DNA of 64,000 bases from Phoronis australis (taxonomy: Eukaryota > Animalia > Phoronida): NCBI GenBank assembly GCA_002633005.1, contig NMRA01000153.1, positions 187,893 through 251,892 of the forward strand, in the 5' to 3' direction. This document shows positions 2,622 through 50,670 of this stretch, piece after piece. The notes under the pieces are model-generated. The model worked only from the letters and a program-made list of their open reading frames with translations. It searched no databases and was not told the DNA's origin. Every line of letters begins with the position of its first letter. Position 1 is the first letter of the stretch. Made by a program: the position numbers and the translations under genes.

Positions 2622-3236
2622 GTAAGAAATTAGTGTAATATAAATGACAATATAAAAATATCTTAAAACGGACAATCACCGCACAAATGAAAAAATTCAT
2701 ATTGATTCAACGTTTCGTCTATTCATTAGACATCATCAGGTTATAAACAATAAGACATCAAATTTCGATATACCAGCCATGTTACATCCATGAAGTGAAA
2801 TGAGTGAGGCAAAAAACTGATGTAATTATAAATATCTTGTCTCTTAAAGTAAAGGCTTAAGCGGAGGCATTTTTGATAGTATGTTAAGTAAAAATACAAA
2901 TCATATCCGATCATGTAAGATACATTTGTCTGTGTTAATTGGTCTATTGAGGGTAAAACGTTAGTTTTCCCCAACAACGTTCTAATTTGTCGTGCTGCAA
3001 CTACAAGGTTTTGCTTAAAAAATTCATTAGATTGCAAGTTAGCTTAATATTGTGTCGTGTACAGATAGGACAGTCAAGAAAGAACGAAGTGCCTCTATAA
3101 AGCAAACAAAGGCAGGCAACTAAAATCGATCACTTGATGTTATACAAACCATGATGTGGCTAGATTACTTAGTTATTCCTTGTGTCACAGCTCCAGTCTA
3201 GACCTAGTAGTGATGGATCCATATTCTGTTGTATAT

Positions 3237-3319
3237 TGTGCAACTCATGACCAGCTCCTGGTTGTGATGTGATGTTTATTAACACAATAACACAATCAGG
3301 AGCCAGAAATTAGAACACA
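3237..3319 (-). ncRNA. Singleton pre-miRNA-like hairpin at the distal end of the cluster
   Basis: CUGGCUCCUGAUUGUG/CACAACCAGGAGCUGG long stem with basal AAUUU/GAGUU and UGUGU/GCACA pairs. Confidence 0.5.
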
Positions 3320-3323
3320 GGCT

Positions 3324-3400
3324 GACGCCAAGGGACTGAAATTAAAGGGAGCTAATTATAATGTAGACATTAACTCAGCGAACACTTCAATACTAGCGAC
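3324..3400 (-). ncRNA. Diverged family-2-like hairpin d
   Basis: GAGUUAAU/AUUAGCUC and AUUGAAGU/AUUUCAGU stems; flanking similarity to copies a-c. Confidence 0.35.
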
Positions 3401-3512
3401 ACCTATTGCGAGTTACTCATCAGGTGCAAAGTAAACAGATACACTTATTTGTGGAATTGTTAAGTCTAGAAGCCGTTTTCCAATGAATGTGAACACAGAA
3501 CTCAGGTGATAT

Positions 3513-3596
3513 TGGGTGCACCTATTTTTGGAACTGTCAACACTAGAATCTGTCCTAACTAGTGCTTGGCAGTTGCCAAATACAAGTGAACAACTA
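3513..3596 (-). ncRNA. Family-1 pre-miRNA-like hairpin A; 5p UUUGGCAACUGCCAAGCACUAG (3580-3559)
   Basis: Stem UUUGG-C-AACUGCCAA-G-CACUAG / CUAGUG-UUGACAGUU-CCAAA, 12-nt loop, lower stem, CNNC (CACC) about 17 nt after predicted 3' cut. Confidence 0.6.
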
Positions 3597-3660
3597 AACA
3601 TCGTTATAAACAGTTAATAACTTTCAGCAACCAATATGAACTTAGAAATACCGTGATCAC

Positions 3661-3735
3661 TGAGTGTTTGGAACTGCCAAAGGTAGAATCAATATCACTA
3701 GCAATTGACCATTGCCAAATTAAACTGGACATCCA
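3661..3735 (-). ncRNA. Family-1 hairpin B (degenerate lower stem); 5p UUUGGCAAUGGUCAAUUGCUAG (3719-3698)
   Basis: Paralogue of A; first 12 nt identical to vertebrate miR-182-5p; deletion in the basal stem. Confidence 0.4.
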
Positions 3736-3829
3736 GACTTCATGTCATGGTCATTCGACTTATAAACAGATACAACTATCTACAAACTTGTACTGCGAAT
3801 TCAAACAAACATAGAAATACTGTGATCAT

Positions 3830-3912
3830 AGAATGCACTTGTGTTTGGAACAGTTAAGGCCAGAAGCTATTTAACTTGTGGTTGGCAGTTGCCAAATTAA
3901 AGTGAACACCCA
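3830..3912 (-). ncRNA. Family-1 hairpin C; 5p UUUGGCAACUGCCAACCACAAG (3896-3875)
   Basis: Paralogue of A with a weaker upper stem. Confidence 0.45.
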
Positions 3913-4043
3913 TACGTCCCAGTTTGATTTTATTATAAAATAGTTGAATTTGATGTGCTTTCATAGCTTCGTAAAAACTGGAGAGTTCGTTATTGCTTAA
4001 TATCAATAGTACTGATACTTGATGAGAATTGTGAAAGCGAAAC

Positions 4044-4116
4044 ATGGCAGTACCATCAAAATGAACAGTGCTAATTACAATCTCATCAGCACTGAAGCCT
4101 TTAACACTACAACCAC
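4044..4116 (-). ncRNA. Family-2 pre-miRNA-like hairpin a; conserved 3p arm AUUAGCACUGUUCAUUUUGAU (4075-4055)
   Basis: CAGUGCUGAU/AUUAGCACUG upper stem plus G:U-rich lower stem. Confidence 0.55.
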
Positions 4117-4159
4117 ACTATTGAGATTGAGAGTCATTGTAACAGTAATACCTAAACAT

Positions 4160-4380
4160 CAGGGCTTGGAATGACCAATGACAAAAAACGCGGAAACTTT
4201 GAAACTTTTACGGCCCAAATCATGCCCGATAACCATCCTTGAAATGGTCAATGTGACAAAAAACCGGGAGGACTAAAAAAAAAAAAAAACGTTACCACCA
4301 TCAGTAGCATGCGTCTGCGTCCTTTTAGCTCGCCCGTCCACTCCCAACCCACACATTTTTGGCTGCAGAGCGGTAGTATT
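4160..4380 (-). mobile_element. hAT-like MITE, inverted partial copy of 11506-12014, truncated at the assembly gap
   Basis: Near-identical reverse complement of about 11783-12014, starting with TIR CAGGGCTTGGAAT. Confidence 0.9.
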
Positions 4381-4387
4381 TGTCACT

Positions 4388-4541
4388 NNNNNNNNNNNNN
4401 NNNNNNNNNNNNNNNNNNNNNNNNNNNNNNNNNNNNNNNNNNNNNNNNNNNNNNNNNNNNNNNNNNNNNNNNNNNNNNNNNNNNNNNNNNNNNNNNNNNN
4501 NNNNNNNNNNNNNNNNNNNNNNNNNNNNNNNNNNNNNNNNN
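4388..4541. other. Assembly gap (N run)
   Basis: 154 Ns. Confidence 1.
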
Positions 4542-4644
4542 CTTCTCATGATGGTAATTCGATTCGTGAGGAGATCAACAACTCTCTAAAATTGTATAGC
4601 AACTACAACCGTAAAAATATGACAATCATTGAGGATTCTTAAGT

Positions 4645-4714
4645 GCTTGGCACCAGTAATATTGATAAGCGATGAGAAGTGTGAAAGCTACTCATCACAC
4701 CGGATTGTGCTAGC
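4645..4714 (-). ncRNA. Family-3 weak hairpin (near-identical copy at 5877-5946)
   Basis: GUGAUGAG/CUCAUCGC stem; the gtgaaagc motif (plus strand) recurs near 4031, 4884 and, as atgaaagc, 5357. Confidence 0.3.
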
Positions 4715-4936
4715 CTGTTTTTTATCAGCTATCCACAACCTTGTGTAATGAACAGAGTCCACTAGTTAAGAAAAGATGGCAATAAGGTATTGCTTAAATG
4801 AAGACTAATTATGAATGATGAGATTAATAGCCTGTCAAGCCTAAAAATTAACATCCACAGAACTCATGAGGGTCATGGTGTGGTGTGAAAGCTATAACTT
4901 CTACATTAAACACAAGCATAGGAATACGATGGTCAT

Positions 4937-5016
4937 TGATTGCACTTGTGTTTGGAATTGTCAAGGCTAGAATCTATTTAACTAGCTTTTAACAATGCCA
5001 AATTAAAGTGAACGTA
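4937..5016 (-). ncRNA. Family-1 hairpin D; 5p UUUGGCAUUGUUAAAAGCUAGU (5002-4981)
   Basis: AUUGUUAA/UUGACAAU and GCUAG/CUAGC pairing; CNNC (CAUC) about 18 nt downstream. Confidence 0.55.
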
Positions 5017-5062
5017 CACTTCCCATGATGGTCATTCCATTCATAAGCAGATAAGGTGATCA

Positions 5063-5147
5063 TTGGGTGCACCTATTTTTGGAACTGTCAAGACTAGAAT
5101 CTGTTCAACGAGTTCTTGGCAGTTGCCAAATCTAAATGAACACCCAA
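5063..5147 (-). ncRNA. Family-1 hairpin E; 5p UUUGGCAACUGCCAAGAACUCG (5130-5109)
   Basis: UUGGGUG/CACCCAA and CAUUUA/UAGGUG basal stem; AACUGCCAAGA/UCUUGACAGUU upper stem; CNNC (CACC) about 18 nt downstream. Confidence 0.6.
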
Positions 5148-5208
5148 ACTTGCCACGATGGTCATCATTTTTAACAGATAATTACTATGAACAAGTTGAA
5201 AAAACATG

Positions 5209-5275
5209 CCAGTATTATCAAAATGAACAGTGCTAATTACAATCTCATCAGCATTGAACATTTCAACAATACCAC
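5209..5275 (-). ncRNA. Family-2 hairpin b; 3p arm identical to copy a (5237-5217)
   Basis: 14 consecutive pairs GUAUUGUUGAAAUG/CAUUUUGAUAAUAC (3 G:U), then CAAUGCUGAU/AUUAGCACUG. Confidence 0.62.
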
Positions 5276-5521
5276 CAAGCTATTAAAATTGAGAATCATC
5301 GTAATATTATTTAAAAACTGAAACACTAATGATGACGATGCATGTTGAGCGCACCTATGAAAGCTACTTATTACTCTAGTTTTTGTTGCCACATGGTTAT
5401 TGACTATTTACTTTTACATCCAATTTCCGAAATAAGTTAACTGTCAAAGTACTAGTGATATCACTGCAAAAACTGTCCAAGAATTTCTGCATTGAATACG
5501 AATATGGAATACAATGGTTAT

Positions 5522-5603
5522 TGTGTGCACTTGTGTTTGGAAATGTCAAGGCCAGATTCCATTTAACTGGCTCTTAACAATGCCAAATTAAAGTGAACAC
5601 ATA
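5522..5603 (-). ncRNA. Family-1 hairpin F; 5p UUUGGCAUUGUUAAGAGCCAGU (5587-5566)
   Basis: GCCAG/CUGGC is a compensatory change relative to GCUAG/CUAGC in D. Confidence 0.6.
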
Positions 5604-5687
5604 CACTTCTCATGGTGGTCATTGTATTTATAAGGAGACGACTACAAATTTGTACAGTGAATACGAACATAGAAATATAGTGATCAT

Positions 5688-5771
5688 TGAGTGCAGTTAT
5701 GTTTGGAACTGTCAAAGCTAGAATCTAATGTTAACCAGCTGTTAACAATGCCAAATCCAAATGAACACCCA
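5688..5771 (-). ncRNA. Family-1 hairpin G; 5p UUUGGCAUUGUUAACAGCUGGU (5755-5734)
   Basis: UUGUUAA/UUGACAG, AGCUGG/CUAGCU and GGGUG/CACUC pair fully only on the minus strand (G:U). Confidence 0.58.
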
Positions 5772-6015
5772 CACTTCTCATGATGGTAATTCGATTCGTG
5801 AGGAGATCAACAACTCTCTAAAATTGTATAGCAACTACAACCGTAAAAATATGACAATCGTTGAGGATTCTTAAGTGCTTGGCACCAGTAATATTGATGA
5901 GCGATGAGAAGTGTGAAAGCTACTCATCACACCGGATTGTGCTAGCCTGTTTTGTATCAGCTATCCACAACCTTGTGTAATGAAAAGAATTCACTAGTTC
6001 ACAGTTGACAAAACT

Positions 6016-6089
6016 TGACAATATTATTAAAGTGGGCAGTGCTAATTAGAGTATTATGACCACCACTGTACAGTTCAACACCACTGCCA
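6016..6089 (-). ncRNA. Family-2 hairpin c; 3p arm AUUAGCACUGCCCACUUUAAU
   Basis: UGGCAGUG/UAUUGUCA, UGUUGAA/UUUAAUA and CAGUG/CACUG pairing on the minus strand. Confidence 0.58.
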
Positions 6090-6262
6090 TGCTATTGAGA
6101 ATTAAATTTGTGGCTAGACATGTTTTGTTGGAATTATTAAGTCTAGAAACAATATCATTTACACTTGACAATTGACTTTTGAGTGATAAATCTACCATAT
6201 GAAATTCACGGAAAATTGACCGGTGTTCTTGTTGAGGTCAAGAAATTGTTGAGAATTTATTG

Positions 6263-6334
6263 TGCGTAGAACTACACTGGAGTGTGCCGACATTAAATCT
6301 CAGCCAGCACATCTTCAGTGCAATAAACTACACA
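6263..6334 (-). ncRNA. Hairpin e (family-2-like loop); 5p arm contains UAUUGCACUGAAGAUGUGCUGG
   Basis: About 20-bp upper stem plus UGUGUAG/CUACGCA basal stem; first hairpin after the donor at 6447. Confidence 0.58.
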
Positions 6335-6447
6335 ACTGCTGGTGCAATTAGAAACACCCCACAAGACTTAAAATTTCTGTCAAAGTTGCTGTTAAAGACC
6401 CATGACTGAAACTCAATAGTTTCGTTGGTGGACGCCGAGTTACTCAC

Positions 6448-6548
6448 CTTGACTACATTGGATCTCTGAGGAAGCTTGTGCATCATAATTCTCTGACCAG
6501 TTTTCCCACATAACTCTGAGTGTACATTGCTCAGGAAAAGAGGTGACT
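6448..6548 (-). ncRNA. Putative first exon of the antisense host (pri-miRNA) transcript
   Basis: Starts at Inr TCA(+1)GT (6548) and ends at AAG/GTGAGT donor (6447-6442); the ATGs it contains open only short frames. Confidence 0.55.
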
Positions 6549-6660
6549 GATTTTGGGGTATCATTGCAGTGTTTAAATAGCCCACCAGTGTAGGATCCCT
6601 CTCTGGAAGTAACCAATCAGCAAGCATATCACGTTGTCCAATCAAGCGAAAAATGATTGG
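6546..6660 (-). promoter_or_regulatory. Pol II core promoter: Inr TCAGT (6550-6546), TATA TATTTAAA (6579-6572), three CCAAT boxes (6613-6617, 6638-6642, 6656-6660)
   Basis: TATA starts exactly 31 nt upstream of the Inr A; CCAAT boxes at about -65 to -112. Confidence 0.65.
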
Positions 6661-6840
6661 TCACAGGCATCAGTCCTGGAGAGGGAGTTCAGGCCTATTC
6701 ATGGATTTAACTGGACAGGATTGCCTGGGGGATTAGTACCCACTGGGATTAACAATCAACATACAAACTGTTGGCATCTGTCTACCTCATACTGTAGCAC
6801 ACCTCATAATTACCTTAAATTTGTTGGGGGTAGTGTACTG
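6661..6840. promoter_or_regulatory. Repeated GGATTA module copy 1
   Basis: Core atggatttaactggacaggattgcctgggggattagtacccactgggattaac; GGATTA at 6730 and 6746. Confidence 0.5.
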
Positions 6841-7429
6841 AAAGTTTACTTTGAACTAGTAAATTTTCAAAAAATGACATGTTTGGTACAAATTCATGCA
6901 TCTTTGTAAGGTCTTAATACTGTAGGTTATCTTTTATGTGATGAATACAACAATAACAAGGTTTTTATGGACTTGTTCTATTTCCTTGGCCATAAATTAG
7001 TTTTGAAATATTAAAGATTTGATATTTTTTATTTCTCACTGTTTTCATTTTATTTTCAAATCTGTTGGTTAAAATAATCATGTAAGATACTTTTTCGTAA
7101 ATAAATTCTATCCTAAATGATTTAAACTACAGTAAATGCAAGTGTTGATTTTGCTTTTAGTAGCTTTTAAGCTAGTTAAATAGATTTATGTTTTGTGTGT
7201 CTAATAAATGAAGTTGGCATCCAAAAAGCATACATTTCATTTTAGAATAATAATCCAATCGTAATTTTCAATTTCAACATTTTTGTTCTGATCAGTATTG
7301 ATTTTAAGATCTAGTGCTTCCAAGTATTGTTAGATTTGTCTCTGTTTAAAACAAATAGATGTTGGTGTTTGTGTTTTTTTATCTTTATCTTTTGTAATTT
7401 TTTCTCGTACCACAGACTAAGAATGGTGC

Positions 7430-8550
7430 TGTGATTTGGGCGTAATATTCATTTAATTTCTGGGTAGGTTCTTTTAGACTAGATTGTTTGCTATCAAATT
7501 AATGAGTTAAAGACACTGTTGAACTGTCAAATATTCGTCTTCTTGGTTATTTTATATCTTTACTTGGTTTAACTAAAGCAATAAAAGTGCTTGAATATAT
7601 ATATATACAAATCAGTAATATTCGTATCGTGATATTTTTAATCTTTTGTTACTGGACATATTGTTATCAATTTTCAGGAAACAATGTATTTTTGAATATC
7701 TTGAGTACAGAATAAAATAGATGGTCTTCCATAATTGTTTTGTTTTCATAACCCAACTTGTTGCATCATATTTATTTGTTGTGTTCTCTTCACTTAATTA
7801 TATCTCGCAACTTATAAAATATGAACAAGTTCTGAACTATACTTAAAAATTATAAAATGTTATCACTGACAGTTTTTTAATTATAAATTGTAGTATTTTG
7901 TCTCTCGTTAAACTTTCACATGTTTTACTGCTGAATATAATTATTTTTATTTTCTGTTCCTATGTGGAAATGATTTTGTCCATGAAATTAGTCCTGCTTG
8001 TTTTTGTTACAAGATGCTTTCTGAATTTAATTTTTTGGTAATTCTCTTAAATCATGGCCTTGTATTTGTTGAGTGAATGGGTGTAATATTGTTTTAATTT
8101 CTGGATTGTTTTTTGGGCTATAATTGATAGCTATCAAAGTAACCAGTAAAAGACTGCTGGTTGGTCAAAATATATTTTTTCTTGGATTATTTTGGAAATA
8201 AAACCACCTAGAAATTCATAACTACTGTTTAAGATTTACAGATTTATAATATTCATGCCATTAATTTTAATCTTTTCCTACTGAATGTATAATTATCAAT
8301 TTACAGAAAACCCTATATCTTTAAATATCTCAGCACATGATAAAGTATATCATCTCCCGTGTTTTTATGCAAGTAACCCAACTTGCTGCATCATTGATAT
8401 TTATCTGTAGTGTTTTCTCCACTAAGTTATGTCATGGTATAAGTTTTTAAGGTGTAAATTTATGTTGTTAAACTTTCACATGTTTCACTACTGAATGTAA
8501 TTTATGTTTATTTTCTGTTGGTTGTAAGATGTTTTCTGAATTTAACATTT
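7430..8550. repeat. Old direct duplication (about 7430-7960 vs 8080-8550)
   Basis: Shared blocks gtaatatt..ttaatttctgg, gctatcaaa, taacccaacttg..gcatcat, gttaaactttcacatgttt..ctgaat. Confidence 0.7.
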
Positions 8551-8822
8551 TCCTACATTACAGTGTGAAACAAAAAGAAACAACATGCCTAAAAAGCAAT
8601 TAGTAAAGCACATTTTTTTTCTTTTCAATTATACTGGGCAATCATATTTTGAAGACCCAGTGTTTTTGATTTAAGACAGTTAAACTGATGCATGATTTAA
8701 AAGATATTTTTTACCACAGCACTTTTACAATTTTTACCCTATCTCCCTTATCCAAATAACCCAATTCCCCTAACCATGTCTTTTCAAATTTGTTCCTTGT
8801 TGTTAAATTAAGGAGGTTCTCT

Positions 8823-9010
8823 ATAACCTGTTTGATCTATTGACTGGTATGGTGAGGGACATTATCCCACTCAGTGATTTAACTAGGCAGGGTTACCCAT
8901 GGGGATTAGTGCCTGCTGGGATAAACTGCCAACTGGTGGTGTGTAGTTGCAGCTGTCTATTTCATGCTGTTAACCTGAGAATAGTTTCTTTTCATTTAAA
9001 AAGGTGTAGT
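8823..9010. promoter_or_regulatory. Repeated GGATTA module copy 2
   Basis: gtgatttaactaggcagggttacccatggggattagtgcctgctgggataaac; GGATTA at 8903. Confidence 0.5.
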
Positions 9011-10740
9011 TAACAGCACCTTGACTAATAAACAAGCTATTGTTAAGAATTGTTTGGTGTTTATATACATGTCAAGATCACTCTTATGTTTATTATGTTT
9101 GTATGGGTATGGTATCCTGATGATTGTGGCCTGTTGTACTGGACATCCAAGTATCAATATTCAACAGGAAATTTTAAATGGGCAAAAGAATTAATTTGGT
9201 TTATCATGTTGCCCTAGTGACGTAGTTGTAGGTTTTTGTGTGCTTATCTTGGCAGAGTGTAATTTCTAAACTGAAAAATTATTAAATCCGTCTAGTATAT
9301 CAGCTCCTATTTGAATACCAAGTTCAGTGAGATGGCTTCAGTATCAGTATCTTATTAGAACCATTGCAACAAATTTATTTTAGTAAAACATATTATCTCT
9401 AGTACATGTTTTTGTGCATTTAGTAAAGGGCAAGTGAAACTTAGACTTATTTTTTGTCAGTGCACTATGGGGACACCTATTTCTATGGATTAAGCAATTT
9501 TTTGGTTTTAATATTTTAGGTTACATATTGGTGAAAGATCTACTTTTTAGTTTTGTTTATTGCTCACAGAGTATCACGCATGTAGTATTGTTTTTATTTA
9601 AATTTCTTGAATATTTGAAAAATATGTATTTGTGATTATTGAGCTATAAGTATGTATTCTAGTAAAATTCATGCTGAGAAAAATACCTTGGAACAGTAGG
9701 GCAAATTAACTTTATTTGTAAATATTAATTGAATAAGCTGCATTATTTTGCAAACACTCACATTGTATATCTATCCCTAATAACTAAACAATAAATAACA
9801 AAAAGATTTTAAATTGTAATGTAACTCTGATACACCTTATTTTTCATATTATTGATTTGCTCTCCATAGTGTATAAAAAATTCCCCACGATTCTTAAGTT
9901 CTGAGTTTGCTTTTAATGCAAGTTGTTTGTTACACTGTATCAGGGCACACAAAATTGGAAACAATTTTTTTTAAAATAGGAATTCAGTTAAAAGCCTGTC
10001 TTTTCAGTGGTATTAATCAAATTAATCTCGTTTTGAAGGCCTAGCTTGTGCGTTGCAGCAGTTACTTGGATTTTTATTATTCATTTCCATCCTATTTCAG
10101 TGGTTAAGTGTTAAAGATATGTAGGACTTTATTGACATGTCTTTAAATTTAGCTAAATATCTACAATTAAAGTATAGCATTTAATTCAGAAAAAGTGATA
10201 TTTTCTGTAAGCAGAAATTCATTAGGATTTAATTGTTGACTTTATACAAATATATGCTTATTGTTATTGTCTCTCCATAGTCATTCAAAAGTGGGTGAGA
10301 AACATTCCTTATAGTTTCTTGAAATGCATAACAGGTAGTATTCATTTTAAAGCTTTGTATGAATCCATTCAGCCATTTCCGAGATATGATCTTCAGAAGT
10401 GCCAATTTTTTACATTTTTTATGTAGTTTTACATTACCTTAGTATTGGGCATCCTCTTTGATTTGGTTGCCAGATCAAGGTAATTTTGTAAATGTTTAGT
10501 ACAACAAGTTTAATGTCTAATACTTGGATTTAAGTCCAGAAAATGCTATTTCAGGGGGTAAAACTCCGTATTTGATTGAAGACAAATGCCTTTTTCTTAT
10601 GACAATTTAGGGATTATTTTAAACTATTTTCCCAATAACTTGTATTGAAAATTATTAACTGGACCCCAATTTTTACATAGTTTTTTATCTATATTGGAAA
10701 CTGAAGAAATTTTGCTGTAATTTGTTTGCTTGATAAAGTT

Positions 10741-10880
10741 TTGCCCCATCCCTGGATTCAGCTAAGCAAGGTTACCTGTGGTGGATTATCCCCTGCTATG
10801 ATGAACTGTGACTAATTGACAGGTGACATACTGACAACTCCTGGGAATTACCCTTCAGTTGAAGAAGGTGTTGTATATTA
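10741..10880. promoter_or_regulatory. Repeated GGATTA module copy 3
   Basis: ctggattcagctaagcaaggttacctgtggtggattatcccctgctatgatgaac; GGATTA at 10783. Confidence 0.45.
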
Positions 10881-10989
10881 AAAATTGACATTGAAACAAC
10901 AAACTAAACAAGAATGACAGGTTCCCTGTCAACCTGTAAATCATATTCTTCTTTATTTTTCTTTGGAATGACTAAGTGTCCTAGTTTTC

Positions 10990-11066
10990 AATGATTATCT
11001 TGTCATTATGCAAGATTATTACAAAGATAATGATTATCTTGTCATTATGCAAGATTATTACAAAGA
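10990..11066. repeat. Perfect 39-bp tandem duplication
   Basis: aatgattatcttgtcattatgcaagattattacaaaga x2. Confidence 0.9.
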
Positions 11067-11505
11067 CAATTGGCTAATGTGTGTAGTTAAGTGGCAAATA
11101 TTATTTGTCAGAAACCTCTTCTCTTACAGTATATTTTTCTTGTTCATTAACCTATCATATAATCACTAACCATTATTTTTTGTATGAAATTTACAAAGTC
11201 TATTTTTATTCTACTGGCTACAAAAGCATGTCTGTAATTTTCTAAGGTCTTTTAGCTAATAACTCCACTGTCAAAAATGAAGTTGTCATAATTCTTTGAC
11301 AAAAAGCAGTCTTAATTTTTGACAATTAAACTGTTGGGCTGGAAGGACTTAAAAGAAAACTCCAGATACTGTTTTGTAAGTAATGAAATAAGGAACTAGA
11401 ATTTACAAGTTCGGTGTGAAAAAAATGTTTTAAAAATTCAGCATCTAAATGAAAAATCCTGTTTTTATAAAAAATGTATAAAAATGGAATTCATTGCACA
11501 TAATA

Positions 11506-12014
11506 CAGGGCTTGGAATTTTCCGCGGAAACGCGGATTTCCGCTTTTTTCAAATGTGCTTTCCGCTTTTTTTTATTTTTTCGAGTAAAAAAATCGGATTT
11601 GATGTAAAATTTCCGTGGCAAATTCCTTTCTTACCACGGCGTTGCAGACGACGTTCACCTTGAAAAGCGGAAGTTGCTCTTTATGTTTCGGAGGAACGTA
11701 AATTGTCAACATTGCCGGGGCACCTGGGACAGCGTGGTGGGATTTTCAATGGCGTCTCGTGTTATTGTTAAGCGCGGCACCAATACTACCGCTCTGCAGC
11801 CAGAAAGTGTGTGGGTTGGGAGTGGACGGGCGAGCTAAAGGGACGCAGACGCATGCTACTGATGGTGGTAACGTTTTTTTTTTTTTTTAGTCCTCCCGAT
11901 TTTTGTCGGGGAAAGGTTCACATTGACCATTTCAAGGATGGTTATCGGGCATGATTTGGGCGGTAAAAGTTTCAAAGTTTCCGCGTTTTTTGTCATTGGT
12001 CATTCCAAGCCCTG
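11506..12014 (+). mobile_element. hAT-like MITE with 6-bp TSD
   Basis: 13-bp perfect TIR CAGGGCTTGGAAT/ATTCCAAGCCCTG; ATAATA on both flanks. Confidence 0.88.
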
Positions 12015-12058
12015 ATAATAAGATCCTGCGGGTTATTTAAGAAATCTGATAGTTTGTG

Positions 12059-12287
12059 CAAGACTTGGAATTTTCCTCTTTTTTAAAAGGATTTCCTCTT
12101 GTTTGATTTCCAATTTCTTCTTTTTGGCTCTTTATCATTATTTTGACTTGATTCATGCAAAAATGTTTATTTCAGTTAAATTTTACGACACAAAATATGT
12201 ATCTTTCACACAAGCCCATTTATTTGTGGAGCGATACATCACCCGGGAGATTTTCCTCTTTTTTGTCATTGGTCATTCCAAGCCTTG
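12059..12287 (+). mobile_element. Older, shorter relative of the same hAT-like MITE
   Basis: Ends CAAGACTTGGAATTTTCC and TTGGTCATTCCAAGCCTTG match the neighbouring element's termini. Confidence 0.65.
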
Positions 12288-12778
12288 TTGGTATGTTAAA
12301 TATACTATTATCTTGAATGGGTTTACGCTCGAGCTTCTGAAAAATTATGAAAAATATTCCAGTCATCAGCTGTGAAACCGAACTCAAAGGGAGAGGGGTA
12401 GCCAATATTAGAAATATCTGTGGGCATTGTTGAAAATTTATGTATTAATATTTCAAAAATATTGATTGTTAACTCAATTAAAAAGAATGGAATGCTCTTG
12501 TTTTTCCTGCATTTAACCTGATGTAACAGTATGGTTTGGAATACAAAAGGACAAAAATGTGTCAGTGCTACTGACATATAATCAATGTTATCTTTTTTGA
12601 AGAGCTTGTGTCTTCCACCATTTTTTAAACACAGTCTATTCTAAAGTCCCAGTTTGCTGATTCATTGTTACACCATGTTGAGGAGATACAACTCTTGGCC
12701 TTGTCATTGTTAATTCTAAGTCATTGCTAAAACTTCACTGCAAGATAATATGAGATGCACGTGCGGCACAGAGGTCTG

Positions 12779-13179
12779 TGCTGGGTTGCATGAAACAGTC
12801 CCAAATAGGGACTCGACTAAGTTGCCTAAATCTTTGACCTATCTGTGTCTTTGTTAACTCTCAGATGGAATCTTTTTCTACCATTTCATCTTTAATATGA
12901 CCTCCTCATCCTGAGCCCTGAATTCAATGAAAACAAATAGGGACTTAGTCCTTAAGTTAGGAGTGTTGCATGAAAAGATCCCCAAATAGTTTCATTAATA
13001 ATGCCAATTCAGTGTTGAGTTCACTCTCAATTTTTTTATCAAAGTCAAAAGTTGACTACATAATGAAACTAAAATAGCAGAAGAAATGACAATCGGTGTT
13101 TTCACAAGTCCACAAATATGCAGTAGATTTAGGGAACTTAGTTGAGTCCCTATTTGGGACTCTTTCATGCCACCGGGCA
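12779..13179. mobile_element. Harbinger-like MITE (partial relative at about 42950-43335)
   Basis: About 55-bp imperfect TIRs (..gcatgaaacagtcccaaatagggactc..); CTG on both flanks. Confidence 0.7.
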
Positions 13180-13866
13180 CTGATGAGTAATATGAGTGTA
13201 GATACTGATGAGGGATACATGTGTTTCTTTTTCCTGTTTTTGCTGTAGCTTAACCTTGCTTTGTCTCTGCTGCAAGCCAGAATTAACTATATCTCAACTG
13301 TTGACATGGACATTGCGAAGCACGCTTTTTACTGTAATTTTCTACCTATTTAACTCACATTCATGTATAGCTGTCAAGAGATTTTTTGTTCAATGTCTCA
13401 AGAAAATTAAATATAAAATTTTGTCCAATTATTGGCTTGGTTTTTACAATGTAGATATTTAAAACAAAATTTTTCTCAGCGAGTTGTGCGCCCATATTTC
13501 TTGTTAAATAGCCTCAAAATCGTGCCCAATGCAATCTTAGAAGGGTTGGCCTTCCTGTTGAGTTGGCGACATTTCGACATTGCTTTTTATTTGCCAATGC
13601 CCTCGTCAGTTTGAGAGAGGAATAACTTTTCTGTCAGGAAATGGAAAATTTGCGTCGCTCAGTAACCCAGTTTAGAATTTGTGTTTTAGAGCAGCTTTAA
13701 GGGATAATTTTCCTTTAATTTTCTTAAGGAAAATATTAAAAAGTCTGACTCCTAAAAGTGCTTTCATAATCTTAGACAACTTGGTTCTTACAAAATTGTG
13801 AAGTGGACCAAAGTCTGGAGGGTACTGTATGCTGTCTGGTGTGGGAAGCTACAGAAAGTTCCACTG

Positions 13867-14050
13867 ATAAACCTGTTTGATCTATTCACTGGTATTGTCA
13901 GGGGGTTATTAACCCATTCATGGATTTACCTGAGCAGGGTTGCCTGTGTGGATTAGTACCTGCTGGGATAAATTAGCCTCAGTCTAGGTGTTGGCACTGC
14001 ACATTTCATGCTACTAAGCACTGGGTAATTGATTATCTTACACTTCAACA
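13867..14050. promoter_or_regulatory. Repeated GGATTA module copy 4
   Basis: atggatttacctgagcagggttgcctgtgtggattagtacctgctgggataaat; GGATTA at 13950; 5' flank closely matches copy 2. Confidence 0.5.
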
Positions 14051-15599
14051 GCTCTGCTTAATGATGGTTGGCTTTAATAATGGGCCAATGAAACTTACTG
14101 TAATGAGGCTTAGAATTACATGTCAACTCAGTCATAGCTCATTGTTGTAGCTTGCCTGTGTTTTCTTGGAGTTTTCACAAGGTTATTAAGGACTTTGGAA
14201 AAATTGACCAATTTTGGCCAACTTCAGAACATGATATCTCAGATACAGCTGGTTGAAGCCTTCAGATACTATAATTTATGCACTGTTCTTTAAAATGTTT
14301 GTGGGCATTAGGGGCTATAAAGAAATAGGACTTTAAGGATTTTATGAAAGAACTAAAAAGTTGCATAAAACCAAAATTTTACAGCATTTTAGAAATCCAT
14401 TACGGCATTTTTGAAATTTCATCTGGACATTTATTTCAAATAAAATTTGGTCGTGTTAGGGATACCAGTGTTTTACTTAGATTATATTCCTTGTGTTAAG
14501 TTTTACTAAATAGACATGGTGAGATGAATCGGGTAATGTATTACTGGTGTTAAGTAGAAAATGCTATGTTGAAGGGCTTTCTACTTTCTGAATATGTGTT
14601 CTTTTACTTAATTAAAATTGCTGATATTGTCTATATACACACACTTGTTGATAAGGTCCAAAGAATGTTGATATACTCAATTTTGTTGTTTTTTGATAAA
14701 GCTACTGTTTCTCACAACAATTGTTCATTAAAACAAATAAAACAAAGTAAAACAAAAGGAATCTGTGAGACTCCTGGTAACGACAATTTTACCTTTTCTT
14801 GATCTCTGTCTCACAACAAACTGGGCCAAATTTTTGTAATTTCGCGAGAACAGCAGTCGATTATTAATGTTGTTACTGTTAATGTTGATCTGTATTATTA
14901 TTGTTACTTCCGTGTGGCGTCTCAGTTTTATCATTTTGAAATGTCTAAATTTGTTATTTCATGGGTCTTGTTTTATTTGCTCACTGTACATATTTATGCT
15001 CGAATTTATTGTATTTTATATTTCACCTAATATGTATCATATAATTAAATGTTGTTTTTGTTCGAGATAAAAATTGTTCCTGTTGTGACATTTCTTTTTG
15101 GCCCAGCAAACATAATAAATCTTAAATAAACAAATAAAAAAATAGTTACAAAATTTAGTAGTCAACAGTGAGGACTATTTGCTGTTGTGAACATCATATA
15201 CTTCTTTATTTGACTAGTCATCTATTGTCTGTGAATCTGTTGTGATATTGAAGCCTTTTCTGTTTGTTTAATGGTATCTTCATATGGCTTCACCATGTTA
15301 CTTACAATGTAGATATGTTGGGCCTTAATAAGTCTTGGCATCACCCAGTTACATACAGTGGATGGAAATTTGTATGTTTGTTACACGAGTTAAATCTTGG
15401 CTTCATCTAGACTTACACTAGAGGACAATTAGTGTGTTATGTTATAGGTAAATCTTAATTTAATATGGATATCTAACATGTATTTTTCTTTACAAAAGCA
15501 TTTTCATGATTTCAAACAGGTGATTTCTCCTGCTTGTTTGGTAAAGTTGTGGATACAACCCCCAAGTTTCTAACAAAATAATTTCAGCATGCATGAGCT

Positions 15600-15790
15600 G
15601 TTTCCCTATTCAGTGTCATCATAAGGTGCTGTATCCCAATTTCTGATTTAACTATGCATGGTTACCCATAGGGGATTAGTTCCTACTGTGATAACTGGCC
15701 AACAGATTAGGTCCTCAGGGGAGCATTTGATGTTGTGAACTATGGATTAATTGTCTGTCACTTAAAGAAAGTTGGTTTACTGAATGCTGG
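15600..15790. promoter_or_regulatory. Repeated GGATTA module copy 5
   Basis: ctgatttaactatgcatggttacccataggggattagttcctactgtgataac; GGATTA at 15673 and 15744. Confidence 0.45.
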
Positions 15791-17397
15791 CCTTTGAAGC
15801 AATAAATTAACCAGTGTGGAATATAATTTTGATTTTATTCTTCTGTGGATGGGGTAAAATCTCTAGTCTGGGGCAGTCCCTAAAATTTGGGACACCGAAA
15901 ATCAAGCCGTAATTGAATCTCATTGATTCTGAAAATTGGGACATAGTAAATTTTTCAGTTTTCTCAAATATTACACACACGCTTTGTGTCAATAAAATTT
16001 GGTAATTGACTGCAGGTCACAAAATTGTTGAAAATAGTAGCCAATGTCACATATTCCTGGATCCCCATATAGTGTGTAACAACATCCAGTTGGATGATTG
16101 TGTGTCGGCGAGTGTAATTCTTGGAAAAGATGATATTGGCTATTTCTAAAATTTGGAAACTGCTCGACCTTAAGCCAAATAGGAAATTTTTGACTGTACC
16201 GACTCACTCTGTACGAAAAATAAAGAAAGTGACATTTCAATGCATGTTAAATAAAAAGTCTTCCTTTTTTGTTTGAGTCATACCTGTTGCCCGCTCACTT
16301 ATTTCACATAGCAGTAAGTGAAAAAATAACATCAGGTTTCTATTTTTCAAAGACAGATTGCTCAGCGCGAACCAAGCCAGTAATAAAATAACATTTTCTT
16401 AATGTTTTAGTTTTGTTGGAATTTGATAAAAGAGATTTTCCGCTTATCTGCCATATTGTATGCTAAACATATGAAGAATTATCATATCAATAATTGAAAA
16501 TAAAACTGATATCCTGTAAAACTCATGCATAATGAAATCACAATTTGGCAGTGAATTGACTGTTTATGTTTTTTGTGAACAGTGTGTTTTCTCTAAGCTA
16601 AGGACAATGTCTTGATGAGCCTGGCTGGTGACCGACAGACGGAAGCAGGCGACTTGTTCTAACCCATGCCTCGATTGTGTCCCTGTCCTTACGATTCTTA
16701 ACCAGATTGAACAACAGTTAGTCGGTTCCCACTTGTTTTTTCTCCCGTTTTGTGTTCGTACTGAGAACTGCCTTGGTGTGACATGGCAATTGAAGCACGG
16801 GTTACTGAAAAGAGATTGACAACAAACTGATAGAATGAAATTGATATTTTTTATTTTTCGATTACCGTAATTCTTCACTTATTTTAAAGGCTGAATACTT
16901 TGCTTCAAATGATAATTTTGACAAAATAAAATTTCACCCCTACCATATTGTGGGCTAAGTAGCTGAAGAATTACGGTTTCTGTACGTTGTTTCAAATAAT
17001 CAAACTTTTGTTTGAGTTTGCTTTATGTCCAGAATGAGTTCAAAGTAAGATAAAATAAGAATGAGCCAGTTTATTCATCTAAAAAGTAACACCTATGAGT
17101 GCCATTTCTATAACAGTGTTAACCATAGAAAACAGAAAGCGTTGATTTGCCCTATTTCATGACTCAGTTTTCTATGATGCGTCGTAAAATTAAATCAACA
17201 ATTGACATTCGCCCTCTTCTGAAGCCTGATGTCCCGAATTGATGCCTGTACTGTATTACAAAAACAGCGATGACATTAACTAAGAACTACACAGTTCAGA
17301 ACATTCACTTTACTACTTTCAGGAAGTGCTTTGATATGCACAAGTTGTTTATATAAATGACATTGCCATTAAATGAAGTTCATTATATAAATTGCAG

Positions 17398-20601: not shown

Positions 20602-20727
20602 CACGCACATGCAAGATCTGCAGGAGGTCACTCAAGAGATCCACTATGAGAACTTCCGCTCAGACAAACTGGCTGGTGGTGCTGGCGGCGGCGGCGGCGG
20701 CGGTGGTGGCGCCACTCGCAAGGCAGG
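20602..20727 (+). CDS. SEPT2: SEPT2-like septin (gene 1) exon with poly-Gly tract
   Basis: attcag/gtgggt; [42 protein letters not shown]. Confidence 0.93.
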
Positions 20728-24059: not shown

Positions 24060-24241
24060 ATGAGGGTCCTGGCATTGGACTTGTTGGTGCTCGTGTTATG
24101 AAGTGGGGGTCCCTACATTGGACTTGTTAGTTCTTGTGTTATGAAGTGGGGGCCCCTACACTGGACTTGTTAGTTCTTGTGTTATGAAGTGGGGGTCCCT
24201 ACATTGGACTTTTTAGTGCTTGTGTTGTGAAGTGGGGGTCC
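24060..24241. repeat. 43-bp minisatellite (resumes at 25565-25700 after an insertion)
   Basis: Unit tgaagtgggggtccctacattggacttgttagttcttgtgtta. Confidence 0.9.
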
Positions 24242-25564
24242 TTTTTGGCCCCGCCACTCGTAAATCATACTCAAATTGGCCACCACACACCTAATCATGA
24301 CGGGGAAACTTCACTGCCACACAAAAATCGCTACTAAAAATGATCGCTAGTAAAAATGATCGCTAGTAAAAATGATCGCTACTAAAAATTATCGCTAGTA
24401 AAAATGATCGCTATTAAAAATGATCGCTAGTAAAAATGTTCGCTAGTAAAAATGATCGCTAGTAAAAATGATCGCTAGTAAAAATTATCGCAGGTAAATT
24501 GATTGCAGGTAAAATGAATCGCAAGCAAAATGAATTGCAAGTAAAAATGATCGCTAGTAAAAATGATCGCTAGTAATTATGAATAATTACAAGTCACACG
24601 GCACCTTTCGCCGTTTGTAGATCGAAAGGGAAAAATAATAATTTTACAATGGGATCTTGCATTGTGCCCCCTGTCAAACATATTATTCAATCCCCAACCC
24701 CATTTCGTACCCTGTTTCTGCCTTGTTATTCGACAATGCATATAAACTTAATACAGCCGGGGACCAGGCAGCGACCTCGATACGAATTTCCTAAAATGGG
24801 AAAGTGCCAGGGCTTGCTAATGAAGTAAGAAACAATAAGATTTCTGCTTCATTCATTTTATCGTGTCCGAATTTACAAAAGACATTGTGAATTATACTGT
24901 AGGGCGTGACATCCAACTGTTTAATCAACCATAGCCCTGCGCCAACATGACGGTATTGAATGTTAACCAGTCTCAGATTCGTCTGCATGGACTGGATTAT
25001 ACATCGTCTGCTACGCCGGCCAACGCCAATCCACTATCACTGATTTATGTTTAGGAAGACGATATCAAAGGAAGTTTTGTTACACGAATTAGTTTATTAC
25101 GTCTAAAAATTTCACATATTTTTTGTTCTATGTTTGTTACTTTGAGGATAATTGAATTTTAACACTGTTTTTTTGTACTCAAGTGCGACAGAGATCACAC
25201 TATGCCGGACACTTCATTGCCAATTTGTCTTGCGAATTGTCCTTTACCCAGATACTTCCACTACATCATGCTAGGGTTAGGGTCTTGTCTATAATGAGCA
25301 AACTGCAACCAATTACATGTAATTTCCAAATTTTGCCTGGGGAATGTCTCCCAACCCCCCCCCCTGATGGGAGGATCTCACTTCATCCCATGCTCGCATG
25401 TGGCACCAGGTTCCACATCCGCGTCGAATGTTCACCACCACGCTCCTTTCGAAACCCAGACAATAGGGGGATCCCACTTCTCATATTCACGTGTGGCAAC
25501 GGGCTTTGCACCCCATTTTGGCCATTTACCACCACGCTCCTTTCAAAACCCAGGGGAAACACTG
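24242..25564. mobile_element. Truncated insertion interrupting the 43-bp minisatellite
   Basis: hAT-like end caggggaaacactg on the right; no matching left TIR seen. Confidence 0.45.
24323..24574. repeat. 16-bp tandem repeat
   Basis: Unit aaaaatgatcgctagt, about 15 copies with variants. Confidence 0.92.
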
Positions 25565-28586: not shown

Positions 28587-29741
28587 AGGGCCTTTCATAC
28601 TAATGTCGATGGTTTGGGGAGTTGTGGTCAGTATGAACGCTTAATTTCGGTCCTGGATCGAAGTTGACAGCTCTAATTATCGTCGCAGTTAAAAGGTGGA
28701 TTTAACAGCGCAACGTCGACGCTGTGGTGCAGTATGAACGGTCAACTTCGGTTCCATCGAAGTTATCGCCAGGTGCTACTGTTATTGTCTACAATTTAAG
28801 GGTAGTGTAGTCGCTAATAGTTGCTTATATTTTGCTTGAATAATCACCAATTGAATTAAAAATAAGTTTCATTGTCAGTTAGCACATGTAAATGTTCCCA
28901 AATTGTCACATTAAAAAAGATCTTAGCATGCAGCGCTACCTTGCGATTACTTCGATGACAACAACGTTACCTGCCGTTTACTTTATGTTCCTTAACCCTT
29001 ATCCTGCGCTAGGCGAGGTCAGCCGACAAGCCAATTATCCTACTAAAATGCGTTGGGTGTACTCAATCGCCTATAATAAGCTACGGCTAGACTGCGCAAG
29101 GAGGGTGTACTCACCCCAGGACACTGGTGTTTTTCATTCAGAAATTGTGAAAGCCCCGTATGCTGTTTATATATGTGAGCATGCGCATTCCACAGTCCAT
29201 AGTTTCCTGTACATTTTTCTGATTTACAACATATGGCTGTGGTGAGTTGTTGCCGAGATATTTGAAAGTTTACGCAAGTTTTATCTTGGCTGGTGCCAAA
29301 CGTGGTAAGATGACTGTTGACCAGTTTCTTGAGGAAGTGTTCATGGACTCAGATANTTTAACAGCGCAACGTCGACGCTGTGGTGCAGTATGAACGGTCA
29401 ACTTCGGTTCCATCGAAGTTATCGCCAGGTGCCACTGTTATTGTCTACAATTTAAGGGTAGTGTAGTCGCTAATAGTTGCTTATATTTTGCTTGAATAAT
29501 CACCAATTTAATTAAAAATAAGTTTCATTGTCAGTTAGCACATGTAAATGTTCCCAAATTGTCACATTAAAAAAGATCTTAGCATGCAGCGCTACCTTGC
29601 GATTACTTCGATGACAACAACGTTACCTGCCGTTTACTTTATGTTCCTTAACTACCGAAGCCAGTATGAACAGTTTAGTTAATTTCACAGTTAACGTCGA
29701 CGCTCCGCTTAAACTGGAGTTAAGTCAGTATGAAAAGGCCT
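28587..29741. mobile_element. PIF/Harbinger-like MITE (contains an assembly-duplicated segment)
   Basis: TIR agggcctttcatact / agtatgaaaaggcct; TTA on both flanks. Confidence 0.75.
28996..29355 (+). mobile_element. Left end of a piggyBac-like element nested in the Harbinger-like MITE, cut at an N
   Basis: Starts TTAA/CCCTT; ends with MTVDQFLEEVFMDSD, resembling a piggyBac transposase start. Confidence 0.6.
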
Positions 29742-38300: not shown

Positions 38301-38880
38301 AATTCACTTTATTGCTGCAATAATTGCATAAATATATCTTATTCAGTGAGGCGTGGAATATATTGCAAGCAGTTTATCCCGTTCAATCCGCCATGTGACC
38401 AAAAAGATGGCAAATTGAATGGGATAAACTGCTAACTGTAAGTATTGTAGACAATTTTTATCAAGAAATTCATTTGTTACTTATTGGTTTTAGGATTTAT
38501 TTTTTCTTCATATTGGTCAAATGTTTATTAATTGAAAAGTATGTGGCCTCGCTTGTGCTTAAAAGCCTACCAGAGGTCTCCATCAAGATAAAAAGCAAAA
38601 TTTGTAATAACAGTAGTTTCTTCATATTAGAACACAATGTGGCGAAACAGTAAAATTTCATTTCATGGAAAATTTCAACAAGAGTAAGCAAGAAGACAAG
38701 TTTTCACCACCAATTAACTCACACTGAAATTTTGAAATTTTTGAAACGTATTAAAAATGTACACTGAACATTTGAAAAATGAAAAAATGACAACTTGTAT
38801 TTTGGTTCGACTTTAAGGCAATTTCACCAAATAAATTCTTCTGTTTACTACCACTATGGTAATAACAAATCAGTGAAAAT

Positions 38881-42500: not shown

Positions 42501-44574
42501 TGAATTCACCTTCCACCCAGCCGTCATGACCGGGAATTCTGGGTCATTTCGTCTGAATGCTTTTGACACATCTGTAACTTTAAAGCCTTGTTTTGCCCCT
42601 TATTTATGTATTATGATTTCAATCCGATATATATTCCATCGAGTTGTGTTAATTTATTTTATATTATCCTTGTTTAGCCTTGTGAATCACTAAATAATTC
42701 TTATCAATGGTGTCATCTTTTAACTCATTCAAAAGTGCATATCTAATGTGTTATTAGATATCCTGCATTAGATATCCAAACATAAAGCCACTTTTATGCT
42801 AACAATCTTTTTTAGCTGACATTTAAGTGTGTCTAAGTGTCGTTTTATGTGCTTGACGGTTTTTATGAGACAATTTTAACGCGTTTTGTTACCGATAACA
42901 GAGCTGTCATCAGGTATTCCAGGGAGCATTCATTTTGAGTGTAATTTGGACACCGGTGCCGTATGCATGGAACAGTCCCACAGAGGGACTCAACTAAGGC
43001 TCCCTAAATCTTCTGGACACTTGTGTCTTTGTTTACTCACAGGTGATGTTTTTCTATCGTTTTATCTTTATTATGAGCTCCTCCTTTAGTAATGACACTT
43101 TCTTATAAAATAAAGTGAGGCCTTATTTCAATGAAACTAGGGAATTAGTCCTTACATTAGGGGTGTTGCATGGAAAAATGGAAAAATCCCTGTGTGTTTT
43201 CGGTAATATTGAGAATTTTATAGTAGAGCTTACACTCAGTCTGTATAAAAGCCAAAAATTGACTAAATGATCAATGTAAAACTACAGAAGAAAGCTCCAC
43301 GCAGTCAATGTTTTCACAAGCCCACAAATACTGTGAAAAGTTAAGGTTATCTCTAACCTTATACACAAAAAATAGTCATTTTTACAATATTTCACGTGTT
43401 TAGTAAAATACCTTATCATCATTCTAGGGGAACTTCAAATACAAAATATATACTGTGTTTCGAGAAAAAGAGATTTAACAGAACTACTTGGGAACAGCAC
43501 AATCCCGTGGATATTTGTTTACTACTTTTCCGAGGTCAAAGTTTAAAGGGCTTTCAATCAAATCAAATCTCCCGCCAGGTACAGAACAGCTTCGCATACC
43601 CTCAGTCCATTCATTCACAAAATCGCCATAACATTTAGTAAACGAGGTGTACTTATGGTGGAATGGTGCCGGGGAAAATACAGACAAAACGTAACTTTGA
43701 TCCTAAGGGAGTTGTGCGTCTACATGCATACGACCGTTGGCGTTGAGAACGAATGCTACTGTCGCCTCAAGCCTCTGCGGTCATCAACACAGCAAATTAT
43801 GAAAAGAGATAAATCGTCACCCTAATTCCTTTAATCAATTAATAAATTGACATTTCAATGTTTCGATCTCATGCTAACGACATGCTTTAACCACTGATTC
43901 GATTTTTGTTATCCATTTCTTATTTTGTTTCGTGCTCAGTCTCCCAGCACGTGACGTGTACAGGCTACGTGTATAACAATGAACTGTGACCTATTTATAA
44001 AAGTAGGTCAAATGGTCGCAAATAACAGTAACAGTTAGCTGGGAACGGTACGTTTTAATGATAATTAAGTTAATTACGCCACTGCATAATCAGTTGACAT
44101 TGCAAGTGAATGTTGAAATAGCGAACATGTTTAAGGCTTGTATAGGTTATGTGTACCGAAAACAAGCTTTCACCGAATAACAAACCGAAGACTTTGAGAT
44201 TTTCAGTCTTCCCAGTTTAATCAGCTTTATCTTGGCTTCTGCAAATCAACTTCATTTGAACTTAGGAACATGAGTTCTCGAAAACGGCTTGGTGGATTTC
44301 GCTGAAACTTTCCAAATTTAATATTTAGTCATCAGTCTCAAAAACTCTTAGGATTTCCGATATAAAGACCTATTTTTTGCGTAATGTAACAAAGACGAAT
44401 ACGACTTCCGTTTTTTGCAAAGATACCTTGCGTTTTGCACGTTGATTTGTTATGAAAACCTTGGGACTGTTTCATGCAACTTGGCACAGGCTGGTGAAAT
44501 TCTGCATTCTCTCCCTTGCCTTTCAGAGAAGGCTCCCCAATCCCTGGCTATGAACCTGGGTAATAATGTTATTA

Positions 44575-50539: not shown

Positions 50540-50670
50540 CCGTATTCACCCAAATAACTGCCCAGGGTGCATAGAAAAATTTGTTTCAGCGGGGCGCTTA
50601 TTTTAGCAAAATCTGAAAACGCGTGGGGGGGCGTTTATAGGGGTATGGGCGGTTATAAGGGCGAATACGG
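50540..50670. mobile_element. 131-bp MITE derivative of the same family, inverted orientation
   Basis: TA TSD; same TIRs and subterminal sequence, interior deleted. Confidence 0.85.

Follow-up and report, generated by a model that had tools for sequence, protein, structure and literature searches.

Maternal messenger RNA is cleared in vertebrates and flies by amplified, early-transcribed clusters of microRNAs (miRNAs). In the open-access literature, no description was found of a spiralian zygotic miRNA cluster, nor of a miRNA cluster lying antisense in a septin intron. The stretch considered here, 64,000 nucleotides (nt) of the phoronid Phoronis australis (contig NMRA01000153.1, positions 187,893 to 251,892; 'the window', whose own numbering is used throughout), contains 14 intact hairpins with the shape of miRNA precursors (pre-miRNAs), on the minus strand and within 3.1 kilobases (kb) of a septin intron. 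Judged from its sequence, the locus is in all likelihood a lineage-specific polycistronic primary miRNA (pri-miRNA) gene with a promoter of its own, running antisense in that intron.

Among the closest described systems is zebrafish miR-430, which, according to the parts of the published account available, combines a TATA promoter, repeated precursors, a dose that follows copy number and an assembly that possibly under-represents the locus, as here (10.1101/2021.08.09.455629). There, however, the whole unit of promoter and precursor triplet is repeated hundreds of times, whereas the phoronid locus has one promoter, five upstream modules and 14 hairpins falling into three or more seed classes, is antisense and intronic, and has no Rfam match. 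The same source describes sharp TATA promoters as marks of miR-430 and of minor-wave zygotic genes. Tandem amplification under a TATA-type promoter, as in the miR-430, miR-427 and miR-309 types, is found in the phoronid as well. The miR-427 cluster of Xenopus can be likened to the present one alongside miR-430, and the miR-309 and miR-310 clusters of Drosophila are compact polycistrons whose mixed seeds, K-box and MIR-92-type ones among them, are akin to those of ancient families. The Drosophila clusters differ from the present one in their seeds and phylum, and have Zelda sites where K50-type modules stand here.

Among spiralians, the closest parallel is with Platynereis dumerilii, whose tandem arrays on scaffolds 13, 15 and 24 hold precursors with a 3p arm starting UAGCAC and a 5p arm ending GCUGAU or GCUGGU, as in hairpin families B and C below (PMC12257675, as far as its text and supplements were available). 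Those arrays amount to about 70 loci (144 occurrences, with two in each row inspected), all belonging to a single family that bears the true MIR-29 seed UAGCACC; the phoronid seeds, by contrast, are AGCACUG and AGCACAA and are mixed with a different family, A. Mature and star reads of the UAGCACC arrays came from pooled samples of 24-144 hours post fertilization, and the authors left the arrays uninvestigated, flagging them as a possible artefact of prediction or assembly (PMC12257675). In the parts of that source seen, the roughly 70 loci are missing from the curated list; they form a candidate early-embryo array in their own right.

A tandem array of precursor-like hairpins

Pairwise comparison divides the 14 hairpins into family A (seven members), family B (three), family C (two) and the singletons K and H. 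All seven paralogues of family A begin their 5p arm with AUUUGGCA, while the five hairpins of B and C begin their 3p arm with UAGCAC. Singleton K shows a weak relationship to family C (pairwise z 4.3-4.9); the affiliation of H is uncertain, its z of up to 3.9 standing against a cross-family background of up to 3.7. Treating B and C as one family was unsupported beyond their shared GCUGAU-loop-UAGCAC core (pairwise z 0.2-2.2, with the same background of at most 3.7). Fold z values were obtained for 17 candidate windows, on both strands, against dinucleotide shuffles. In minus-strand order, the array and its interruptions are as follows, with CNNC denoting a processing motif treated below.

6268-6325, minus strand: hairpin H, singleton; 5p AUUGCAC (the MIR-92 seed), 3p weakly family C-like; CNNC; z -5.7
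6121-6174, minus strand: decayed family A copy, AUUUGGCA lost
6023-6080, minus strand: hairpin B1; 3p UAGCACUG; CNNC; weak fold, z -1.8
5923-5980, minus strand: hairpin C1; 3p UAGCACAA, MIR-2-like body; CNNC; z -6.3
5699-5756, minus strand: hairpin A1; 5p AUUUGGCA; z -3.6
5533-5588, minus strand: hairpin A2; z -4.9
5214-5271, minus strand: hairpin B2; CNNC; z -5.4
5075-5131, minus strand: hairpin A3; CNNC; z -3.9
4948-5003, minus strand: hairpin A4; CNNC; z -3.5
4691-4748, minus strand: hairpin C2, inside a 226-nt duplicate; CNNC; z -4.8
4388-4541, no strand: assembly gap of 154 N inside the cluster
4158-4387, no strand: terminal part of a dispersed repeat that interrupts the cluster, outside the miRNA unit; inverted copy at 11779-12016
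4052-4109, minus strand: hairpin B3; z -4.2
3841-3897, minus strand: hairpin A5; weak fold, possibly decaying; z -0.7
3664-3720, minus strand: hairpin A6; part of the lower stem deleted, probably decaying; z -0.4
3524-3581, minus strand: hairpin A7; CNNC; z -4.1
3440-3479, minus strand: 3' half of a family A hairpin, a relic
3248-3305, minus strand: hairpin K; 3p CAUCACAACC, K-box/MIR-2-like or MIR-67-like, weakly family C-related; CNNC; z -4.6

ATTTGGCA has eight minus-strand occurrences in the window, seven of them being the family A starts, and TTAGCACTG (3/3) and CTAGCACAA (2/2) are confined within the window to the cluster. An earlier sequence-only reading had counted about 15 hairpins in 3.1 kb; the cluster is there, with an intact count of 14 to which two relics of family A, the decayed copy and the half copy, may be added. 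Because the array is broken by the 154-N gap and the repeat end, the true number of hairpins may exceed 14. The duplicate that holds C2 (4542-4767 versus 5774-5999) shows six differences between its copies and none in the two predicted arms; as the sequences upstream of the two copies differ, it seemed unlikely that the duplicate is a mere allele placed beside the gap.

Folding of both strands, the check that the sequence-only reading had proposed, put 11 of the 17 windows at z of -3.5 or below on the minus strand, that is, 11 of the 14 hairpins. Above that value lay the family members B1, A5 and A6 (6080, 3897 and 3720) and three non-members; candidates at 5366-5455, 4828-4917 and 3356-3445 were dropped (z 0.4, -1.5 and 0.0). 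A blind scan of the whole window placed nine minus-strand hairpins in the bin 3201-6400, of which one belongs to a dispersed repeat, and zero to three in each of the other 19 bins. As in a canonical animal miRNA by the MirGeneDB criteria (two arms of about 22 nt, about 19 pairs, a precursor near 60 nt), each hairpin has 19-29 Watson-Crick pairs, lower stem included, and the family A precursors, at 56-58 nt, are close to the 60-nt animal mean given, together with the CNNC and GHG motifs, in the portions seen of the MirGeneDB 3.0 description (PMC11701709).

Signals that depend on the strand agree with the minus strand. In a symmetric alignment of the arms, there are 58 G:U oppositions on that strand and 23 A:C ones (p 0.002 relative to base composition, a value that treats paralogues as independent when they are not). 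CNNC starts at +16 or +17 from the predicted Drosha cut in 9 of the 14 hairpins and at +13 to +15 or +18 to +23 in none, all on the minus strand; in the plus-strand mirror it is found at +16 to +18 in 2 of 14, with a background of 0.09 per three-position slot. GUG occupies +3 to +5, the GHG motif, in five of seven family A copies, and a basal UG is not consistently found at -14/-13 of the hairpins. Within family A the first eight bases are identical in all seven intact copies, positions 9-22 are 41% alike without gaps, and 94% of the cells of the alignment remain paired. Taken on sequence grounds, the array is very probably a genuine minus-strand pri-miRNA cluster.

Probable promoter, upstream modules and possible embryonic activity

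Upstream of the array, and facing it, stands a composite of promoter elements followed by a predicted exon and, beyond the last hairpin, a possible acceptor.

6613-6660, minus strand: three CCAAT boxes (6660 forward; 6642 and 6617 reverse, as ATTGG)
6545-6579, minus strand: TATA-like TATTTAAA at 6579 (-31) and an initiator (Inr), TCAGTC, at 6550-6545; predicted start 6548, the Inr A
6448-6548, minus strand: predicted non-coding first exon of 101 nt, then a GTGAGT donor at 6447-6442
3095-3115, minus strand: candidate splice acceptor (pyrimidine tract and TAG) past the last hairpin, from sequence

The combination of TATA, Inr and three CCAAT boxes occurs once in the window. With the donor added it was found in none of 60 simulated windows, for a pattern that was defined after the site had been seen. 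The locus probably has its own promoter at 6548, as these elements suggest. If the candidate acceptor is used, all hairpins would lie within intron 1 of the antisense transcript; AATAAA is absent from the minus strand between the last hairpin and the septin exon.

Further upstream lie five homologous modules, each with an invariant TAATCC on the minus strand (at 6735, 8908, 10788, 13955 and 15678).

15625-15694, minus strand: module 5, core; homology continues upstream, more weakly, for about another 100 nt
13903-13972, minus strand: module 4
10736-10805, minus strand: module 3, the most diverged
8856-8925, minus strand: module 2
6683-6752, minus strand: module 1, promoter-proximal, with two exact TAATCC (6751 and 6735)

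The modules also share a related site 16 bases upstream of TAATCC and conserved blocks downstream of it, TAATCCCC is present in three of the five, and module 1 adjoins the CCAAT boxes. Core identity reaches 0.78 and 0.67 in two 25-column blocks, compared with at most 0.66 for the best block in 20 random five-piece alignments. Ten of the 16 minus-strand TAATCC in the window fall within 6.7-15.8 kb, and a profile of the modules run over the 64 kb recovers the five known ones and no sixth below E 3.4. The modules were also considered as RNA structures, an idea that was rejected as a common fold is absent. In the parts of the sources seen, TAATCCCY is the site that Xenopus maternal Otx1 prefers and binds when the genome is activated (PMC6610736), and preimplantation embryos have the K50 factor LEUTX (PMC9978639). 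From their sequence, the modules have about an even chance of mediating control by a K50 factor.

Much of what had been proposed from the letters of the locus is thus borne out. The five repeated modules are real, with an invariant TAATCC and a core identity above that of random alignments; the CCAAT boxes, the TATA at -31, the Inr, the 101-nt exon and the GTGAGT donor all lie where they had been placed; and the G:U bias (58 vs 23) and the orientation of the promoter towards the cluster both point to the minus strand. The promoter composite, the hairpin families, CNNC and the G:U bias together support the claim of an independently promoted, minus-strand, tandemly amplified cluster of miRNA-like hairpins.

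A possible mechanism follows from this arrangement. NF-Y acts at CCAAT boxes; here, a K50 homeodomain factor of the Otx, Gsc or Pitx type at the modules and NF-Y at the CCAAT boxes would drive a burst of transcription from 6548. The tandem array of 14 hairpins would be transcribed from the TATA/Inr/CCAAT promoter as one non-coding RNA, the short first exon would splice out the intron that bears the hairpins, and Microprocessor and Dicer would cut the antisense RNA into miRNAs acting in early embryos. The predicted seeds so delivered would be UUUGGCA from seven copies, AGCACUG from three and AGCACAA from two, with further seeds from the two singletons. Local duplication would raise the dose against few classes of target site, as expected for the clearing of maternal or early transcripts. 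An early-embryo role, which is argued by analogy, is evenly balanced between holding and failing, and the account as a whole, from an array under its own promoter to miRNAs acting in early embryos, is slightly favoured.

Duplication, decay (6121-6174, 3440-3479 and A6) and seed change would also suit a fast-evolving miRNA cluster specific to germline or gonad, since germline clusters behave in this way, and promoters rich in CCAAT are frequent among genes of the germline and the cell cycle. The TATA/Inr promoter and the K50-type sites, on the other hand, match published examples of zygotic activation in the parts available (10.1101/2021.08.09.455629, PMC6610736), and the germline account seems improbable.

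Repeats, transcripts and likeness to known families

The expression data are three RNA sequencing (RNA-seq) runs, X1-X3, of which 18-19% each was read; they are not small-RNA libraries and are not assigned to a stage or tissue, and read direction was judged by spliced septin reads. Several observations weigh against an active miRNA gene. No minus-direction read falls on the predicted exon or promoter in X1-X3, in contrast to a depth of 16, 22 and 53 at the septin exon at 17502, and a minus-direction trace in X3 (0.04, bin 5898-6411) was unrepeated in a second read analysis. Three of the 14 hairpins fold no better than z -1.8, the Drosha registers are predicted, and a length of 58 nt was imposed on the seven hairpins outside family A. 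The table of hairpin regions was anchored on AUUUGGCA, whose invariance is equalled by that of its pairing partner UUCCAAA; stem constraint or recent duplication could therefore explain why AUUUGGCA is fixed. Covariation in family A does not rise above shuffles (its score is reached by 133 of 500; both partners have changed in 3 of 24 pairs), and TAATCC is common in repeats, being found in 31% of Dfam repeat consensus sequences according to the part of the report seen (PMC9978639). Because minus-direction reads are absent at the promoter and exon, the antisense locus is not strongly expressed in the samples of X1-X3.

The few reads over the cluster, in X1 and X2 only, all run in the septin direction. 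As the sole reads there, they would agree with hairpins cut from the plus-strand septin pre-mRNA as ordinary intronic miRNAs, and several family A hairpins fold about equally well on that strand (for instance z -4.5, -3.9, -3.7 and -3.4). B and H, however, fold poorly there, CNNC is in place in only 2 of 14, and both the G:U bias and the promoter favour the minus strand; a plus-strand origin is therefore hardly credible.

The absent transcript, the covariation result and the dispersed repeats of the same intron (10.1-10.4, 11.5-12.3, 12.8-13.6 and 14.2-14.6 kb) would all fit a functionless local duplication, once active or never processed, or a nest of miniature inverted-repeat transposable elements (MITEs) or satellites. 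Off-locus reads, which are an indirect test that sees transcribed copies only, pile up on those repeats and at 4.2-4.4 kb. At 80% likeness over 4545-11030, none falls on the hairpins or on the three modules there, while the repeats at 10.1-10.4 kb collect them. Profiles find no copies of hairpins or modules elsewhere in the 64 kb, the units all face one way, and CNNC and the G:U bias are strand-specific. The dispersed MITE or satellite family that the sequence-only reading had named as its refutation is thus not what this indirect test shows, and the functionless account as a whole is quite improbable. A search of metagenome contigs with the family A pattern gave no matches.

The repeats themselves show some structure. 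The repeat at 11506-12290 and 4158-4387 carries heavy off-locus RNA reads. Positions 4384 and 11778, on opposite strands, are linked by hundreds of reads, which makes it probable that the copy bordering the gap extends into it. An MITE-like element at 12775-13183 has 125-nt inverted ends (73%) and is related to 42964-43330, and an old local duplication lies between modules 1 and 2 (7437-7958 versus 8078-8519; 68% over 380 bases, 91% over 53).

We now turn to known miRNA families. Over the whole window Rfam gives no match at its gathering thresholds, and scans by E-value give sub-threshold matches only (mir-392, mir-2, mir-11, mir-147 and similar). Family A has no Rfam match at E up to 10, MIR-96/182/183 included, and no Mir-71 match is found by Rfam in the window. 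Family A nevertheless carries the 5p UUGGCA core of the MIR-96 family (miR-96/182/183/263) in all seven copies, in the predicted register. In Platynereis, Mir-96-P1b and Mir-96-P1d likewise have their mature sequence on the 5p arm, with the same first eight bases and predicted seed UUUGGCA, and the seed is also listed for molluscs (PMC12257675 and its supplements 3 and 4, in the parts available). Those genes have one or two copies, unlike the seven in a mixed cluster here, and likeness ends with the seed: after the first eight bases, copy A2 agrees with Mir-96-P1bx at 3 of 14 positions, by eye.

The other hairpins give a similar picture. B and C share the UAGCAC start with MIR-29 and diverge from seed position 7, their seeds being AGCACUG or AGCACAA rather than AGCACCA, and there is no Rfam mir-29 match. 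For MIR-2 (RF00047, RF00813), mir-2 and mir-11 are among the top Rfam matches, weak ones of 19-23 bits (23.4 and 19.3) against gathering values of 45-45.5. The MIR-2 seed AUCACAG is replaced by AUCACAA in K and AGCACAA in C. By eye, the 3p arm of C1 agrees with Platynereis Mir-2-oCc at 16 of 23 positions and that of K with Mir-2-oD2 in 16 of 24 columns, one gap being allowed; a stretch of 10 nt is common to K and the Mir-67 precursor as well (all from the same source, as seen). MIR-2 ancestry for C and K is plausible on these sequences. In H the MIR-92 seed AUUGCAC sits on the 5p arm, not the 3p arm, and there is no Rfam match. Because likeness is mostly limited to the seed and Rfam scores stay below gathering, the hairpins are filed in no known family, a separation drawn from comparison with Rfam and the Platynereis supplement. 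MirGeneDB 3.0, which spans several spiralian phyla, may already include these hairpins among the species-specific novel families that it lists.

The first eight bases shared with Mir-96-P1b/d also allow a different role, in which the same miRNA gene, under Otx in cells of a sensory or anterior neural kind, would reinforce a programme of the MIR-96/182/183 type. Sensory-cell expression of the miR-183 family is conserved across animals (PMC3145563, in the part seen), and a rare cell type would account for the absent reads as well. Yet family A lacks the Rfam match and the likeness past base eight noted above, and the sensory miR-183 cluster is described in that source as three conserved genes rather than a fast-changing array with relics; the sensory role is rather unlikely.

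A bolder form of the early-embryo account is possible, though doubtful: the locus may be a spiralian locus for clearing maternal mRNA, a functional counterpart of miR-430 and miR-309, built from offshoots of MIR-96, MIR-29 and MIR-2 that kept or shifted their seeds and switched on at genome activation by a K50 factor through an amplified array of enhancers. If so, it would form with the Platynereis UAGCACC arrays a spiralian class of early-embryo arrays whose seeds have GCAC or GGCA cores. The window offers a complete candidate for testing, with a start site, enhancer modules, hairpins and predicted seeds, and would illustrate how new miRNA families arise by tandem duplication with old seeds kept or shifted. 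Such loci escape Rfam, and catalogues built without the right stage may miss them.

The host septin gene and other features of the window

2622-17397, plus strand: host intron of a septin-2-like gene, supported by spliced reads, one contig and flanking exons that match septins

This GT..AG intron of 14,776 bases is joined by 18, 26 and 31 spliced reads in X1-X3 and bridged by one contig of X4, which, with the septin-2-like flanking exons, upholds the location first proposed. The claim that the unit accounts for most of the length of the intron was overstated. Although the unit stretches over 12.6 of the 14.8 kb, its 3.1-kb cluster, about 0.4 kb of promoter and exon, and five cores of about 100 nt each make up less than one third of the intron.

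An exon search with the host gene returned 90 septins; the best named matches are from bryozoans, nemerteans, a brachiopod, an annelid and molluscs, and echinoderm and hemichordate septins are absent among the named matches. In a quick tree of 26 rows, made up of the window septin with 21 named and 4 unnamed proteins from the 91 fetched, the window septin is closest to Owenia (77% identity over 299 columns), without a well-supported clade around it; together these results point, tentatively, to a spiralian host. The last 62 bases of one septin exon (787-848) are duplicated just inside the next intron (855-916; 89% identity), the exon at 20603-20725 ends in a glycine run, and behind the first septin gene comes another in tandem, which is more divergent (55631-63190, plus strand; the sole match of one exon is 73%).

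Elsewhere in the window, a near-identical direct repeat of about 290 bases (by eye, ~28700-28995 and ~29357-29650) has its second copy right after a single N and is possibly assembly redundancy. An element of about 1.4 kb is present, by eye, at ~45050-46435 and ~58465-59955, with a short form at ~50540-50672; it has terminal inverted repeats and no long open reading frame and is likely a non-autonomous DNA transposon. The tandem arrays at 24073-24241, 24327-24576 and 63726-64000 are of 43, 16 and 30 bases, and the most stable hairpin of the window (~38365-38435; -41 kcal/mol, on both strands) stands isolated.

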